From sequence record OM386664.1: a stretch of DNA of 64,000 nt. One strand, given 5' to 3'. The DNA comes from Escherichia phage vB_EcoM_ESCO50. The number at the start of each line of letters is the position of its first letter. Within the stretch, counting starts at the first letter, position 1. The notes beneath the pieces are model-generated. The model saw nothing but the letters and a program-made list of their open reading frames with translations. It was not told the DNA's origin and did no database searches. The position numbers and the translations under genes were made by a program. This document shows, in pieces, positions 1 through 37,025 of the stretch.

Positions 1-952
1 AACAGTTGATACATAGGCTTTACAGAATCTTAACAGATGATTAACAAGAGCTAACAAGTTAATTTTTAAGGGTTATTTTGTTAAGATAATTAACAAGTTC
101 CTAACAAGTGTTTAACCTTTTTAACAAACTATTAACATGGTCACTACTCTTTTCTTATCATTCCCTTTCCTTTCTTAGTGACACCTTAAAAATGCCTTTT
201 AAAAGCTCTCTATAGCTCTCTATAGGCTCTTTTTAGTCTCTCCCTAGTATTTACCCCTCAAATGTATGAATAGCTCTTTATAGTGCTTTACAGTGCTTTT
301 AAGGCTATGCCAAAGGCTCTTACAAGGCTTTTACATGGCTTTAACAGAGATTTAACAAGGTGCTAACAAGTTGCTAACAAGCATAACTATGTAGGGGTTG
401 TTAATGGATTGTTAAAAAGATGTTAAAGGGGCTAGCATTTACGTAACTTTTACGTAACTTCAAAGTAACTTTATAGCCCCTTTTACGTAACTTTATAGCC
501 CCTATAACATACTTTTTAGTGACTATCAAGCCCTTTTTAGTAGTTCACGAGATACTAGTCAGCCTATAAGCTTATACCCTTAAAAGTTTCTTTTAAGGCT
601 CTGTAAAGCCTTATAAAGGGCTTTTTAAGGTTAGTTAATGCAATCCCTTAAGTTATATTGATAATGCTGTTATAGAGCGTTATAGAGCGTTATAGAGCGT
701 TATAGAGCGTTTAAAGGTTTGCCCTTCCCTCTCGGGCTATGGGCTTGTATTTAAGTTGATTTGATAAAAGGCTATAGGGTAGACTATAGAGTTATTGCTT
801 TTTAAGGTATGAGATAAACTCTATCGAATCAGTGGGAGATTCTGGAAAGGTGAGGAAAGGGATTGCATAAGGATTTGATAGACGTAAAAAAGCCCCATTT
901 AAGGGGCTATATAAAGGTGTCTGGGGCTATTTAGCCCCGCTGCATTGACAAC
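1..952. repeat. Repeat-rich non-coding region with several families of short direct repeats (TAACAAG >=7 copies, TTACGTAACTT x4, GTTATAGAGC x4 in tandem near 669-708, CTCTATAG pairs); iteron-like, candidate origin, genome end or protein-binding array
   Basis: No ORF >=60 aa in any frame; repeats read directly from sequence. Confidence 0.6.
885..908 (-). terminator. Rho-independent terminator on minus strand (stem AGCCCC/GGGGCT, followed by U-run), 3' of gene 953-1483; a second hairpin GGGGCT-ATTT-AGCCCC lies at ~923-938
   Basis: Inverted repeat with adjacent A-run on plus strand (U-run on minus transcript). Confidence 0.5.
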
Positions 953-2438: not shown

Positions 2439-2981
2439 TTAGAAAAAGCTCTTCAAATCTCTTTCTACAATGTTTTCTGTCAGTGCGTCCATGATGTCAC
2501 AAAAAACCTGAATACTATCCACCTGTTGAACACTTTTAGCAAGAAATTCTAAAGGCTCCTCAATATAGTTTAAATTCGGATTATCCAACGAAGGGAGACA
2601 AAAAGGCGAGTACATCGCATTAAACTCGGTTACGTAAACCTTTTTAATCCAATTCAAATCGAAATATTCTGTAAAACTTGCCACGCTCGACATATTATCG
2701 CAAGAGAAATCATCGTTTAATTCATCCTCTGGAATATCAAGTTCTAAGATAACAATATTTTGAGTTTTCATTTGAAAGGCCGCTGATATAGTGGCATTTC
2801 CTAGCGCTTGTTGAATTCCTTCCGATGTTATCTCTTGCTCATCGTCGCCATAGATTTTATTTTCTGGGTACACGTAAAAATTGCCGTCCATGTCCGAACA
2901 ATTCCATGCACCTGATGGCTTGTCGCCGTTATTAATCAGGTTGAGGAAATTTTCTTGAGTAGTACCGTGAAAACATTTCAT
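2439..2981 (-). CDS. Hypothetical protein (180 aa), acidic
   Basis: ORF preceded by type B cassette. Confidence 0.5.
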   Translation of the reverse strand: MKCFHGTTQENFLNLINNGDKPSGAWNCSDMDGNFYVYPENKIYGDDEQEITSEGIQQALGNATISAAFQMKTQNIVILELDIPEDELNDDFSCDNMSSVASFTEYFDLNWIKKVYVTEFNAMYSPFCLPSLDNPNLNYIEEPLEFLAKSVQQVDSIQVFCDIMDALTENIVERDLKSFF

Positions 2982-3073
2982 TTTAGAATCTCCAGTTTAG
3001 GATTTAGCGGTAAAGCTCTTTATCTGGGGCTTACTATATCGAACTGTAAGCCCCTTGTAAAGTACTTTATCAA
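2982..3073 (-). promoter_or_regulatory. Type B cassette: promoter TTTACA-N17-TATAGT with the spacer and -10 embedded in hairpin GGGGCTTAC...GTAAGCCCC, then RBS
   Basis: Conserved repeat; one stem position changed with a compensating change relative to other copies. Confidence 0.55.
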
Positions 3074-3271
3074 TTATTTTTTGACAACTTTTAAAACGGC
3101 AAGATAACCTAAACAATATGAATCACCGAAGAGAGTCCGGCCCATAAATGAATCCTCTTTAATATCCTTTGCAGTGACGGTTTTTTCTACGCCGTGGGAG
3201 AGGACTACATCGCCAACTTTAATGTCTTTGATATGTGTAGTTTCAATGTTTAAACCGTTAATAATAGCCAT
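3074..3271 (-). CDS. Hypothetical small protein (65 aa)
   Basis: ORF between two cassettes. Confidence 0.4.
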   Translation of the reverse strand: MAIINGLNIETTHIKDIKVGDVVLSHGVEKTVTAKDIKEDSFMGRTLFGDSYCLGYLAVLKVVKK

Positions 3272-3377
3272 TTTTAGAATCTCCAGTTTAGGACTTTATT
3301 TAGTGTGGGAGGTCATTCCCTCCCCGTTGATGTGTAATTTAGTCTATCTAAAAACCAGTGTCAACAATTTTTTTTTT
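3272..3377 (-). promoter_or_regulatory. Type A cassette: TTGACA (~3359-3364) N17 TAAATT (~3336-3341), 5' hairpin ~3307-3325, RBS
   Basis: Read on minus strand; consensus -35 and 17-nt spacer. Confidence 0.6.
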
Positions 3378-3782
3378 TTAAAGTTCTGTATAAATTGCGT
3401 CGCAGATATCACGAAAGTCGTGATTTGACAAATTACGCTGCAACCAAGTAGCGAAAAAATCAGCGATTGCAAAATTCGCGCCATACTCGACGGATAACCA
3501 TACTTTCACGGCGAATCTGAATATTTTTAAATCAAGTTCTTTATTCATTACCTTAGATTTGCCCAACATGTCAGCCATTTCATATTGTGCGCCGTCTAGC
3601 GTGATACCCGCTGCAACGTCAATCAGTGAGGTTTTTACGCTTTCAACGTCTAAGATAACACTCTGAATCTTCCCAATAATATTATATAAGGTTTCATCTG
3701 GCGCTGCTGATGTCAGAGCATTAATCCGGTTAACGGTCAAACGTGCTTTTAAGATTAATAACTCACGGTTATTAATAGTCAT
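3378..3782 (-). CDS. Hypothetical protein (134 aa)
   Basis: ORF with cassette upstream. Confidence 0.5.
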   Translation of the reverse strand: MTINNRELLILKARLTVNRINALTSAAPDETLYNIIGKIQSVILDVESVKTSLIDVAAGITLDGAQYEMADMLGKSKVMNKELDLKIFRFAVKVWLSVEYGANFAIADFFATWLQRNLSNHDFRDICDAIYTEL

Positions 3783-3867
3783 TTTAGAATCTCCAATTTA
3801 GGATTTAGCGGTAAAGCTCTTTATCTGGGGCTTACTATATCGAACTATAAGCCCCTTGTAAAGTACT
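3783..3867 (-). promoter_or_regulatory. Type B cassette (TTTACA-N17-TATAGT overlapping hairpin GGGGCTTA...TAAGCCCC)
   Basis: Repeat copy. Confidence 0.55.
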
Positions 3868-4140
3868 TTATACTAAATGCAGCTTTTTGCCTTTTACCAT
3901 GATGTAACTTGATGCGCTATTGCTATATACATCCTGATAAATTCTGCGCAAACGTCCTTTATAGTGAACTTTCCAGCTCGTTGGTATCTTTTTCCCATAT
4001 CCGGTAGCAGTTTTTTGAAGTCCAGCAATTTGCCAATCCAAAATATGTTGTTCCGCTTGTAAATCCTCAAAATTCATCACGCCGTCTACATAGTGGCGTA
4101 GAGTGACATTTAGAGTACGGCCATTGTTAGTAGTATACAT
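3868..4140 (-). CDS. Hypothetical protein (90 aa)
   Basis: ORF with cassette upstream. Confidence 0.5.
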   Translation of the reverse strand: MYTTNNGRTLNVTLRHYVDGVMNFEDLQAEQHILDWQIAGLQKTATGYGKKIPTSWKVHYKGRLRRIYQDVYSNSASSYIMVKGKKLHLV

Positions 4141-4235
4141 TTTTTGAATCTCCTAGTTTAAGGACTTTACTTAGTGGGGAAGGTCATTCCCTCCCCGTTG
4201 ATGTGTAATTTAATATATCTAAAAATCAGTGTCAA
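4141..4235 (-). promoter_or_regulatory. Type A cassette: TTGACA (~4230-4235, overlapping stop of upstream gene) N17 TAAATT (~4207-4212), 5' hairpin, RBS
   Basis: Repeat copy with consensus -35. Confidence 0.6.
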
Positions 4236-4564
4236 CTGTTTTGTTTTCGTTTGCTCATTTCTTGAGCAATTACAGCGTAGTAGTCTTTTAAGTCACTGAT
4301 ATTCAAAGCATTTATCAGAGAGTTATAATCATCGACTAACTGAAAATCATCTTTAAAGATATCGCTGATTTGATAGGTTTTTGCTTTAAATCTAAAGCTC
4401 ATCTCTAGCCGTTTTATTTGCTCATCGCTTAAACGCTCTAAAAAGCTCTCTACGAGGTTATTGCTAACCTGTTGTGTGATTGCCTTATCTGCTAAATTAT
4501 AGGCGCTGTAAGCCTTATAAAGTGCTATAATGGCGATGATTGCAGTAATTCCCATCATTAACAT
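4232..4564 (-). CDS. Hypothetical membrane protein (110 aa; N-terminal hydrophobic helix)
   Basis: ORF; N-terminus MLMMGITAIIAIIALYKAY is hydrophobic. Confidence 0.5.
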   Translation of the reverse strand: MLMMGITAIIAIIALYKAYSAYNLADKAITQQVSNNLVESFLERLSDEQIKRLEMSFRFKAKTYQISDIFKDDFQLVDDYNSLINALNISDLKDYYAVIAQEMSKRKQNS

Positions 4565-4580: not shown

Positions 4581-5093
4581 TTAATTTTTAAAGATATTCA
4601 GCACCGAATCTTTTAATGATTCCAAGCGTTCTAATACTTCAGATTCTGCGCCTGAATTGCTCACCTCCTCTTTTAGTCTATCCTCTAAATCAACGCCGTC
4701 GCTATAGCACCAATCGAAAGCGTAACCAATAGAAAAACTATCTAAAACCGTTTTTCCGTTTGCGTCTACAACTTTTGCAGATAGGTAATACTCTGAAGCC
4801 TCTAAATCCCTTTTTAGCTCTTCCTGTAAGCTTATGTAAGCCTCACGGGATGGATTTTTCCGGCCTTGTTTTGCATAGTCGCTTGAGAGCTGTTTAAGGC
4901 TGTAATGTAAAGGGATTGCATATTTAAATTCATTGCGTTGATAGTTAGGATTTTTAATAGTCGCACCGCCTTGATGGTCATCTGTAAACTCCCAATTTTC
5001 AAGGGCATGACTTGGTTCATACCAAGTAACAGCCTCATAAATGATTGAGAATTTTTCTTTTACAACTTCAAAGGTAGCGTCTATAGTTTTCAT
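4581..5093 (-). CDS. Hypothetical protein (170 aa)
   Basis: ORF closely following upstream gene. Confidence 0.5.
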   Translation of the reverse strand: MKTIDATFEVVKEKFSIIYEAVTWYEPSHALENWEFTDDHQGGATIKNPNYQRNEFKYAIPLHYSLKQLSSDYAKQGRKNPSREAYISLQEELKRDLEASEYYLSAKVVDANGKTVLDSFSIGYAFDWCYSDGVDLEDRLKEEVSNSGAESEVLERLESLKDSVLNIFKN

Positions 5094-5177
5094 TTTAGAA
5101 TCTCCAGTTTAGGTTTAGTGATAAAGCTCTTTATCTGGGGCTTACTATATCGAACTATAAGCCCCTTGTAAAGTACT
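5094..5177 (-). promoter_or_regulatory. Type B cassette
   Basis: Repeat copy. Confidence 0.55.
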
Positions 5178-5561
5178 TTATTTGTTAATTTTGAAGATAG
5201 TTACATAGCCATCGCTCCCGATGATTTGAGATACTCCAGCTTTTTCTACTGAATAGCCCATATTCTCAAGATGATAAACAGCGTCATCATAACCATATGC
5301 GCCGCCCTGATAGCGTCTCTTATTGCATTTTATCAGGTTTTTACCACGTCCAGCAAGTGCATTTAGTACGGCTTTTTCACTTGAAAGCGTACCGTCTAAC
5401 ATTGTTGCCGTGTAATGATTGATTTTATTCCCGTTGATATCATACTTGAAATTAAACGAGTGAACAACAATTATTTTATCGTTAAATTTTTCATCAAGCG
5501 CCTTCTCTAATACATTACGGAAATTTTCTTTATTGATGAATTTAGGTGCACGATATGTCAT
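5178..5561 (-). CDS. Hypothetical protein (127 aa)
   Basis: ORF with cassette upstream. Confidence 0.5.
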   Translation of the reverse strand: MTYRAPKFINKENFRNVLEKALDEKFNDKIIVVHSFNFKYDINGNKINHYTATMLDGTLSSEKAVLNALAGRGKNLIKCNKRRYQGGAYGYDDAVYHLENMGYSVEKAGVSQIIGSDGYVTIFKINK

Positions 5562-5649
5562 TTTTAAGTTCTCCAGTTTAGGTTTAGTGATAAAGCTCTT
5601 TATCTGGGGCTTACTATATCGAACTATAAGCCCCTTGTAAAGTACTTTA
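5562..5649 (-). promoter_or_regulatory. Type B cassette
   Basis: Repeat copy. Confidence 0.55.
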
Positions 5650-5856
5650 TTAGATTTCGTAGTAGTAAACTGCTGTCTGTCTTATGTGCTTTCTTGTTAC
5701 TCTTGTAAGATAGCAATTAGAGTCTATAGCCGTTTCTACATAATTGCAATAATCAGACTCTGAAATTCTGGACCATGCACCGCAAATTTGCATGTAAAAA
5801 CGCTTTACATTTGTGTTAACGTTAGTTGTGACCATCAATTCACGACCGTATAGCAT
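5650..5856 (-). CDS. Hypothetical small protein (68 aa)
   Basis: ORF with cassette upstream. Confidence 0.4.
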   Translation of the reverse strand: MLYGRELMVTTNVNTNVKRFYMQICGAWSRISESDYCNYVETAIDSNCYLTRVTRKHIRQTAVYYYEI

Positions 5857-36768: not shown

Positions 36769-37025
36769 GTAAGCCTCTTTTAAGTAACTATTAAGTTTTA
36801 ATCTTTTATCTTAACGTATTCTATACGTTATACTTTAAAGCTTTTTAAAAACTATTAAATAGTCTTTTAAGAGTTTTAAAGTATCTGTATAGTTAAACTG
36901 TTAAGTAACCTTTTAAGTAAAAACCCACTTCGCAAAGATTAACACCTTGTCAAGTACATTGTCAACTTGCTTTTTATAATTTTTTACAGTAATGTATGAG
37001 ATTAATGATTTAAGAGGGAGTAAAA
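36769..37025. promoter_or_regulatory. AT-rich divergent intergenic region with TTAAGTAA(C) direct repeats and TTGTCAA elements between minus-strand genes and the DNA polymerase
   Basis: Strand switch here; repeats and promoter-like elements read from sequence. Confidence 0.45.

Follow-up and report, generated by a model that had tools for sequence, protein, structure and literature searches.

Setting of the repeat-rich region

The DNA analysed here, referred to as the window, is 64,000 nt of one strand of Escherichia phage vB_EcoM_ESCO50 (OM386664.1), and the region under study consists of its positions 1-952. Sequence matches identify the source phage as a Felix O1-like myophage of the genus Felixounavirus (Ounavirinae). 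The region is free of genes, filled with short repeats and bordered by a minus-strand gene at 953-1483. It appears to contain the right-hand part of a direct terminal repeat (DTR), and its repeats may take part in the cutting and packaging of the phage genome.

The initial annotation of this DNA saw no open reading frame (ORF) of 60 amino acids (aa) or more in the region, and the longest that we found are indeed only 35 and 42 aa; the 3-nt signal of coding DNA is also depleted (z = -3.7). Annotated relatives have a gene-free stretch of ~1.7 kb between convergent gene blocks, and the region corresponds to roughly the right half of it. Position 1 is merely the edge of the window: in ESCO56, the closest relative (91% identity), gene-free, repeat-rich DNA extends ~795 nt further left. 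This extension holds an array of five to six CTTCTAACAAGC units and an array of ~15 TTAACA units (10-11 bp each) that reaches window positions 30-58, such that the TAACA copies at 31, 42 and 52 are the tail of an array that begins upstream of the window. Matches to the region were found in 227 phage records by megablast and in 255 by blastn. The initial annotation had named absence from close relatives, or lack of conservation in them, as grounds for abandoning its interpretation; instead, ~250 phage records carry the region, and it is conserved like the neighbouring genes. The features that bear on its interpretation are as follows, where a slash marks a cut.

1-432, no strand: right ~3/4 of the predicted DTR; aligns to positions 434-1 of the record of the relative D4, within the exact 581-bp DTR of D4
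30-138, plus strand: arrays of TTAACA/TAACAAG spaced 10-11 bp apart; TAACA copies at 31, 42, 52, 91, 102, 122 and 133
204-299, plus strand: two copies of AGCTCTCTAT (204-223) and the pair CTTTATAGTG/CTTTACAGTG (276-299); TATAG/TACAG motif family at the centre of the predicted DTR, detected by Tandem Repeats Finder
313-381, plus strand: unbroken array of 11-bp units, six or seven in number; period 11 at 313-346 and 353-381
398-432, minus strand: three inverted TGTTAA copies (399, 410 and 421; 11-bp spacing) followed by AAGGGGC; abut the predicted right DTR boundary
427-438, no strand: right DTR boundary and putative cleavage site AAGGGGC/TAGCAT, with the cut between 432 and 433, from homology to five two-copy records
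438-503, plus strand: TTTACGTAACT array with the palindromic core TTACGTAA, copies at 438, 449, ~460 (degenerate) and 482, interleaved with two copies of CTTTATAGCCCCT; directly outside the predicted DTR

A direct terminal repeat with shared boundaries

The deposited records of five independently sequenced relatives contain exact DTRs, the two copies being 100% identical, so the same sequence stands at both ends of these genomes in the manner of a short, exact, non-permuted repeat of the T7 type. The window holds one copy.

D4: DTR of 581 bp
Citrobacter phage HP1 (Mooglevirus): DTR of 570 bp
ECP2307: DTR of 592 bp
NBSal004: DTR of 694 bp
Ro111lw: DTR of 613 bp

All five records (5/5) share the same DTR boundaries, which in the orientation of the window read ...TGTATATCTGCTT/GGTAGCCCTTAACA...TGTTAAGGGGGC/TAGCATTTACGTAAC... 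The boundary words CTGCTT/GGTAGCCC and GGGGGC/TAGC are identical in these records and in 11 further genomes. In addition, the records of H12, NBEco004, NBEco005, E9, I14.1 and EcSzw_1 start or stop exactly at these boundaries. The record of BPS15Q2 has no DTR and starts 14 nt outside the boundary. A 77-bp terminal overlap in REP10 was considered as a DTR and rejected, as it looks like a k-mer artefact of the assembler.

The window carries a homologous boundary. The sequence TGTTAAAGGGGC/TAGCATTTACGTAAC at 421-447 is one base off the consensus and unique in the window, and GGGGCTAGC, at the right boundary, is likewise unique in the 64 kb. Mapped onto the window by homology, the right end of virion DNA would read ...TGTTAAAGGGGC/TAGCATTTACG... 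and fall between 432 and 433 (GGGGC/TAGC). By the same homology the left boundary is expected ~147 nt before the window, for a total DTR of ~580 bp; in ESCO56 the predicted DTR occupies 5854-6443 of L001, with window position 1 corresponding to L001 6001. We infer that 1-432 is the right three quarters of an exact DTR of ~580 bp and that the right physical end lies at 432/433. Positions 433-952 would then be unique DNA that separates the DTR from the first leftward gene and holds further repeat arrays together with the terminators of the leftward genes.

Published work on relatives places ends in agreement with fixed, sequence-defined termini. The 613-bp DTR of Ro111lw is a PhageTerm result reported in PMC6454146, D4 was also ordered by PhageTerm (PMC11737134), and HP1 was described as carrying direct repeats at its two ends (PMC9120918). 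For the Felix O1-like phage UAB_Phi87, the searched passages of PMC4837284 give a DTR of 608 bp, determined by Bal31 digestion and run-off sequencing, and a grouping of its large terminase subunit (TerL) by packaging type; in its genome 614 bp separate the two boundary words. The "short terminal repeats" of Felix O1 were, in the searched passages of its genome paper (PMC3185647), merely inferred from pulsed-field gel electrophoresis. Fixed ends are thus indicated by the shared boundary words, by published PhageTerm and run-off data, and by an adapter remnant in an Erwinia phage record that is described below.

Two deposited records deserve separate mention. The 694-bp DTR of NBSal004 (MN994503.1; L015/L016) owes its length to internal duplications of ~49 bp (GGGATTGGTAACAATACCAATTAG... 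units), and the record is labelled circular despite carrying both terminal copies. A copy of this Felix O1-type DTR segment with 88% identity is found at 135884-136305 of GU169904.1, a 147-kb record named "Staphylococcus phage SA1", which suggests that this record is a chimeric or contaminated assembly.

Phased motifs and their orientation

The repeats described in the initial annotation were largely recovered. TAACAAG, counted there at least seven times, occurs exactly seven times and always on the plus strand (42, 52, 91, 102, 353, 364 and 375), a density of 7.4/kb in 1-952 compared with 0.24/kb in the other 63 kb. The perfect tandem of four GTTATAGAGC copies was found at 669-708, and the repeat pairs were found as two copies of CTCTATAG (208 and 218) and the pair CTTTATAG/CTTTACAG (276 and 286). 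For TTACGTAACTT, the interleaving with CTTTATAGCCCCT (two copies, 469 and 491) was correct, whereas the count of four has to be amended to three exact copies (439, 450 and 483) and a degenerate one at ~461 (AAAGTAACTT); this 11-mer is found nowhere else in the window. The longer repeat units of the region likewise occur nowhere else in the window, and within the 64 kb the motifs and the boundary word are confined to the region. The idea that TATATAG, CTTTACAG, TTACGTAAC or the boundary words serve the phage as general promoter or terminator words was rejected, as none of them is associated with gene starts in the rest of the 64 kb.

Self-similarity within 1-952 peaks at lags 10-11, 20-22 and 31-32. 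Relative to 66 other segments of 952 nt, self-match z-scores are 5.7 at lag 10, 8.1 at lag 11, 6.7 at lag 22 and ~4.5 at lags 31-32. The repetition is well in excess of chance. Because the self-match peaks at 10-11 bp and its multiples, the repeats recur once per helical turn. The array at 313-381 grades from CTTACAAG and TTTACATG into TTAACAGA, TTAACAAG and two copies of CTAACAAG. In the arrays at 30-138 the motif columns are nearly invariant among 20 relatives, while the spacers vary.

The anatomy of the region was compared among 21 junctions from Felixounavirus, Suspvirus and Mooglevirus. Each DTR (570-694 bp) carries 19-23 plus-strand copies of TAACA, ~20 times the background of 1.65/kb per strand, with 3-11 more copies in the left flank and 0-2 in the right flank. 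Many copies on one strand, in and next to the DTR, are also what the T7 short repeat arrays consist of. The orientation reverses at the right boundary, where a phased block of at least three minus-strand TGTTAA copies (range 3-5) ends in all of the junctions (21/21); isolated minus-strand copies, one to three, are also present elsewhere in the DTR. Read inward, both ends of the DTR form an imperfect inverted repeat, (TA)GCCC(CC)TTAACA-N5-KTAACA. A second family of motifs starts directly outside the right cut, first as TTTACGTAACT units and then as TATAG-type units that include the GTTATAGAGC tandem. The cut is therefore flanked by motifs as in cos- or pac-type sites: three phased TGTTAA copies end at it, and the TTACGTAA palindromes start 6 nt after it.

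Conservation follows the motifs. TAACA columns have an alignment identity of 97.0%, compared with 89.2% for the spacers of the arrays and 91.5% for other non-coding positions (Mann-Whitney p ~1e-10). In its degree of conservation, the part of the DTR that lies in the window equals 2.8 kb of adjacent coding DNA, with identities to other genera of 78-85% and 76-79%, respectively. Copy numbers vary among relatives, from 3 to 5 for TGTTAAG, from 1 to at least 6 for TTACGTAAC, from 1 to 6 for CTTCTAACAAGC and from 2 to 4 for GTTATAGAGC, and the copy that adjoins each cut is invariant, including the first TTTACGTAACT copy beside the right cut. The four GTTATAGAGC copies found here compare with two in the 13 other junctions printed from the 21-junction alignment, which suggests that the expansion to four was a recent slippage event.

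Two scans of IMG/VR with repeat patterns were of little use. The pattern TTAACA-N5-TTAACA-N5-TTAACA returned unrelated AT-rich contigs among the matches listed and is not specific, and TTTACGTAACTTTTACGTAAC returned one locus alone and is too strict.

The same plan is found in a more distant relative. Erwinia phage vEam_PM_27 (PP079184.1, Kolesnikvirus) was not recovered by blastn with the region, and it has a 418-bp terminal repeat with 14 plus-strand and 7 minus-strand copies of TAACA and a periodicity of 11/22 nt. Its boundary words are homologous to those described above (TGTATATCTACTT... and ...GTGGC/TAAC), and a different motif, TTAGAA, with 11 copies in phased pairs, is confined to its right flank. 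A remnant of an Illumina adapter is fused directly after ...GTGGC in this record. Positions 1-8 of the record (TCCGATCT) correspond in reverse complement to the first bases of the Illumina adapter AGATCGGA, and we read this remnant as an assembly artefact that marks a true physical end of the DNA. Erwinia phage Fifi106 was set aside in favour of vEam_PM_27, since the database version of its genome is circularised at a coding position and useless for mapping ends.

Remaining features of the region and of the window

The spacer to the right of the arrays described above contains the following features.

576-631, no strand: imperfect palindrome or repeat block CCCTTAAAAG...CTTTTAAGGCTCTGTAAAGCCTTATAAAGGGCTTTTTAAGG; inverted repeat, largely conserved in the alignment
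669-711, plus strand: perfect GTTATAGAGC tandem, four copies; 4.3 copies at 100% match when the partial unit is counted
712-800, no strand: highly conserved unique block GCCCTTCCCTYTCGGGYTATGGGCTT...TTAAGTTGATTTGATAA...CTATAG..ACTATAGAGTTATTGC; many columns at least 95% identical across three genera
885-940, minus strand: two hairpins 3' of the minus-strand gene 953-1483, GGGGC-TATTTA-GCCCC at 923-938 and AGCCCC-ATTTAA-GGGGCT at 891-908, with a T-run at 885-890

The conserved block at 712-800 includes a weak hairpin (733-747), which is a weak terminator-like match. The two hairpins at the end of the region had been noticed before, one of them as a terminator for the first minus-strand gene; this description fits the hairpin at 891-908, which together with the T-run on the minus strand forms a predicted intrinsic terminator-like site for the gene at 953-1483, the other hairpin being that at 923-938.

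The small leftward genes are separated by families of repeated intergenic cassettes of 40-93 nt, which contain a ribosome-binding site, a hairpin and a CTTTACA-type word and whose copies are 80-98% identical. They are located at the following positions.

1481-1520, 2046-2153, 2978-3070, 3269-3376, 3779-3871, 4140-4247, 5089-5181 and 5558-5650: intergenic cassettes

Direct repeats of 57 bp and 39 bp that are noted in the searched passages of the Felix O1 genome paper (PMC3185647) are the counterpart of these cassettes.

The sequence GATC is absent from the whole 64-kb window, where ~222 copies would be expected under a trinucleotide Markov model. Also absent from the 64 kb are CTGCAG (20.5 expected), CAGCTG (13.2), ATGCAT (12.7), CCATGG (8.4) and GGTACC (8.3). 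The missing words reflect strong avoidance of restriction, Dam or MutH-type sites.

Interpretation as a probable genome-end region

The initial annotation had offered three options for the region: a terminal-repeat or packaging region, a replication origin, or a regulatory platform for protein binding. The first is strongly supported by the homology of 1-432 to mapped DTRs; the regulatory platform found no support, and the origin was neither supported nor excluded. We consider it likely, with a probability of roughly 0.7, that the region is the genome-end or concatemer-junction region of a Felix O1-like myophage, organised in the style of T7, and that its phased arrays recruit the machinery that cuts the ends and packages the DNA. 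By analogy with other phages, the short phased repeats probably guide that machinery.

In this scenario, the phased motifs would form a binding lattice on one face of the DNA for the part of the packaging machinery that recognises the terminus. A candidate reader of the lattice is TerL together with a partner that resembles a small terminase subunit (TerS) or with some other DNA-binding protein. Machinery bound in opposite orientations at the two boundaries could introduce sequence-specific cuts or nicks, and the single DTR copy in the concatemer might then be duplicated by strand-displacement synthesis, as in T7. Such duplication of a single repeat copy has been proposed for T7-like phages (PMC10438801). 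The second motif family outside the right cut, with its TTACGTAA palindromes and GTTATAGAGC/TATAG units, may have an accessory role like that of T7 SRL/SRR, lambda cosB or SPP1 pacR.

Several points weigh against this interpretation. The window holds one copy of the DTR and its left boundary lies outside, such that the ends of this phage were placed by homology. The role of the arrays in cutting and packaging is assigned by analogy, and to our knowledge neither has the function of the T7 SRL/SRR arrays been established nor is a protein known that binds the arrays described here. TerL is estimated from the coordinates of D4 to lie outside the window. No TerS is annotated in D4 or detectable upstream of its TerL (L070 12969-14570), which is preceded by only a tRNA cluster and small ORFs, and these ORFs match only PHROGs of unknown function. 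Similarly, the genes that adjoin the region were searched and gave no recognisable function, and the searched passages of the Felix O1 genome paper report TerL as the only terminase subunit found (PMC3185647). The symmetry of the two boundaries is also imperfect, as the positions of the two cuts, measured from the shared TAGCCC, differ by 4 nt. Finally, the placement of ends is not exact to the base in all relatives: the run-off result for UAB_Phi87 (608) and the motif-to-motif distance (614) are 6 nt apart, and the left end of the repeat in vEam_PM_27 is 21 nt inside the boundary predicted by homology.

A bolder and more tentative possibility, which we would not call probable, is that the TAACA lattice is a telomere-like platform for an unannotated Ounavirinae protein. 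This could be a new small terminase that wraps ~150 bp, with one motif per subunit, or an end-binding protein that marks both nick sites and protects or primes the ends. The flank family that is specific to each genus (TTACGTAA/TATAG in Felixounavirus, TTAGAAG in Kolesnikvirus) could then be co-evolving with a specificity subunit.

Alternative explanations

The arrays might serve end biology other than packaging, for instance if an end-binding protein protects the DNA from RecBCD, helps ejection, or promotes recombination between DTRs into concatemers. The arrays lie inside the DTR and are thus present at both ends of every virion DNA, where the same inward-reading lattice, GCCC(CC)TTAACA-N5-TTAACA, makes the ends symmetric, and the variation in copy number is compatible with recombination or slippage being frequent here. 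Moreover, the Felixounavirus Bas63 is reportedly devoid of a known RecBCD inhibitor (bioRxiv 10.1101/2024.10.10.617714). However, two terminase cuts in opposite orientations predict the same symmetry equally well, the motif families outside the DTR, which are found at one virion end only, are left unexplained, and the idea lacks a known candidate protein. We regard this explanation as unlikely.

Doubt is greater for a replication origin, in which the phased repeats would be iterons for a phage or host initiator and adjacent AT-rich tracts the unwinding element. The direct repeats are dense, AT-rich 40-mers lie nearby (83% AT at 53-92, and tracts of 90% AT upstream in ESCO56), and the region is conserved and specific to its locus; in some phages, origin-related elements do sit near the ends. 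Against this, transcription of the gene blocks on either side runs toward the region, a geometry that resembles a terminus more than an origin, and cumulative GC skew simply tracks the orientation of the genes. The motifs flip their orientation exactly at a mapped DNA end, and no initiator-like gene is recognisable beside the region. Iterons that bind initiators are typically 17-22 bp long, whereas here a motif of 5-7 bp recurs once per helical turn. The window part contains no DnaA box (at most one mismatch allowed) and no GATC, and more generally DnaA, IHF, GATC and Chi words are essentially absent from the region, the exception being a single IHF-like match at 868 (minus strand).

Another site in the window is at least as good a candidate for an origin. 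At 36769-37025, a 257-bp AT-rich divergent intergenic region separates a leftward gene from a rightward ORF of 899 aa, and the GC skew switches strand here. The 899-aa ORF sits about where D4, judging by its coordinates, encodes DNA polymerase. This intergenic region is a candidate early-promoter or origin region.

It is very improbable that the region lacks a sequence-specific function and is a terminator zone without genes whose simple short repeats come and go through slippage during replication. The copy number of every array varies between relatives, as this would predict, but motif positions are better conserved than spacers (97% vs 89%), the region is conserved like neighbouring genes across three genera, and the pattern of motif, phasing and orientation persists in Kolesnikvirus though the DNA cannot be aligned.

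Least credible of all is that the region is a platform for regulating transcription or encodes a non-coding RNA: TTAACA looks like the -35 hexamer TTGACA and a few promoter-like matches use it (e.g., 132-161, 10/12), but sigma-70-like promoter sites are not enriched over shuffled sequences (2 in the window, where shuffling gives 3.4 +/- 2.0, and 10 in ESCO56, where it gives 6.9 +/- 2.8), the flanking genes end rather than start at the region, the homologous 1.7-kb region of ESCO56 has no Rfam match (E <= 1), and RNAalifold applied to both strands of the three most conserved blocks returned only terminator hairpins and no other conserved or covarying fold.

Implications

A terminal-repeat or concatemer-junction region is a known kind of feature, and DTR lengths of relatives have already been published. 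We did not find described in the searchable literature a definition of the boundaries at the level of sequence, the inversion of the motif at the boundary, the lattice of helically phased TAACA copies, the flank motifs peculiar to each genus, or the fact that four Ounavirinae genera conserve this plan. The searched passages of PMC4837284, PMC6454146 and PMC3185647 give only a length for the repeat and hold no description of the arrays, their phasing, the inverted boundary motif or the flank families.

Felix O1-like phages, which serve widely in the typing and biocontrol of Salmonella and E. coli and in therapy, would gain a sequence-based definition of their genome ends. Most of the ~250 deposited relatives were opened arbitrarily, without the DTR, and the words GGTAGCCCTTAACA and TGTTAAGGGGGC would allow these genomes to be re-oriented and completed. 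Recognition of the packaging site also becomes testable in a group without an identifiable small terminase, the candidate sites being a lattice of ~20 phased motifs and the inverted block of three copies that adjoins the cut. For phage engineering, the ~1.7 kb should not be treated as a neutral insertion site.

Comparison with known systems

The nearest known counterparts are the DTRs of other Felix O1-like phages (UAB_Phi87, Ro111lw and Felix O1), which are homologous DNA: 1-432 aligns inside them, and the boundary words are identical or one base off.

Other systems resemble the region in organisation. Iteron-type origins, such as lambda ori and plasmid iterons, also consist of tandem direct repeats beside AT-rich DNA. 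The region differs from them in its much shorter unit, which recurs once per helical turn, in arrays that are tied to a mapped DNA end, and in convergent transcription. In lambda cosB (R-sites), SPP1 pacL/pacR and P1 pac (hexamers), repeated motifs that are often helically phased flank a specific cut and are bound by the small terminase subunit. The region shares with these the presence of repeated motifs on both sides of a specific cleavage site, which here is predicted; however, they produce cohesive ends or start headful packaging, whereas two fixed cuts ~580 bp apart and an exact DTR are expected here.

The closest parallel in design is T7, whose CCTAAAG-type short repeat arrays, SRL and SRR, Dunn and Studier are said to have described in 1983. 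Both phages would have an exact, non-permuted, short DTR, and in both a motif of 5-7 bp is repeated many times on one strand inside and next to it. Checked directly, the T7 sequence has a 160-bp DTR with CCTAAAG at 17, 41 and 60 inside it, an array of at least eight copies at 175-340 just internal to it, and more copies before the right copy of the DTR. The two are not related in sequence: the T7 motif is CCTAAAG with a spacing of 13 bp, compared with TAACA at 10-11 bp here. Furthermore, the DTR here is 3.5-4 times longer, and the arrays, most of which lie within it, change orientation at one of its boundaries. The left end of T7 carries early promoters, while the region here lies between convergent gene blocks of a myovirus, and T7 has a known small terminase subunit (gp18), while none is recognisable here. 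On comparison of the sequences, we take the resemblance to T7 to be one of architecture and not of descent, which would make the genome-end region of Felix O1-like phages an analogue, not a homologue, of the T7 system.

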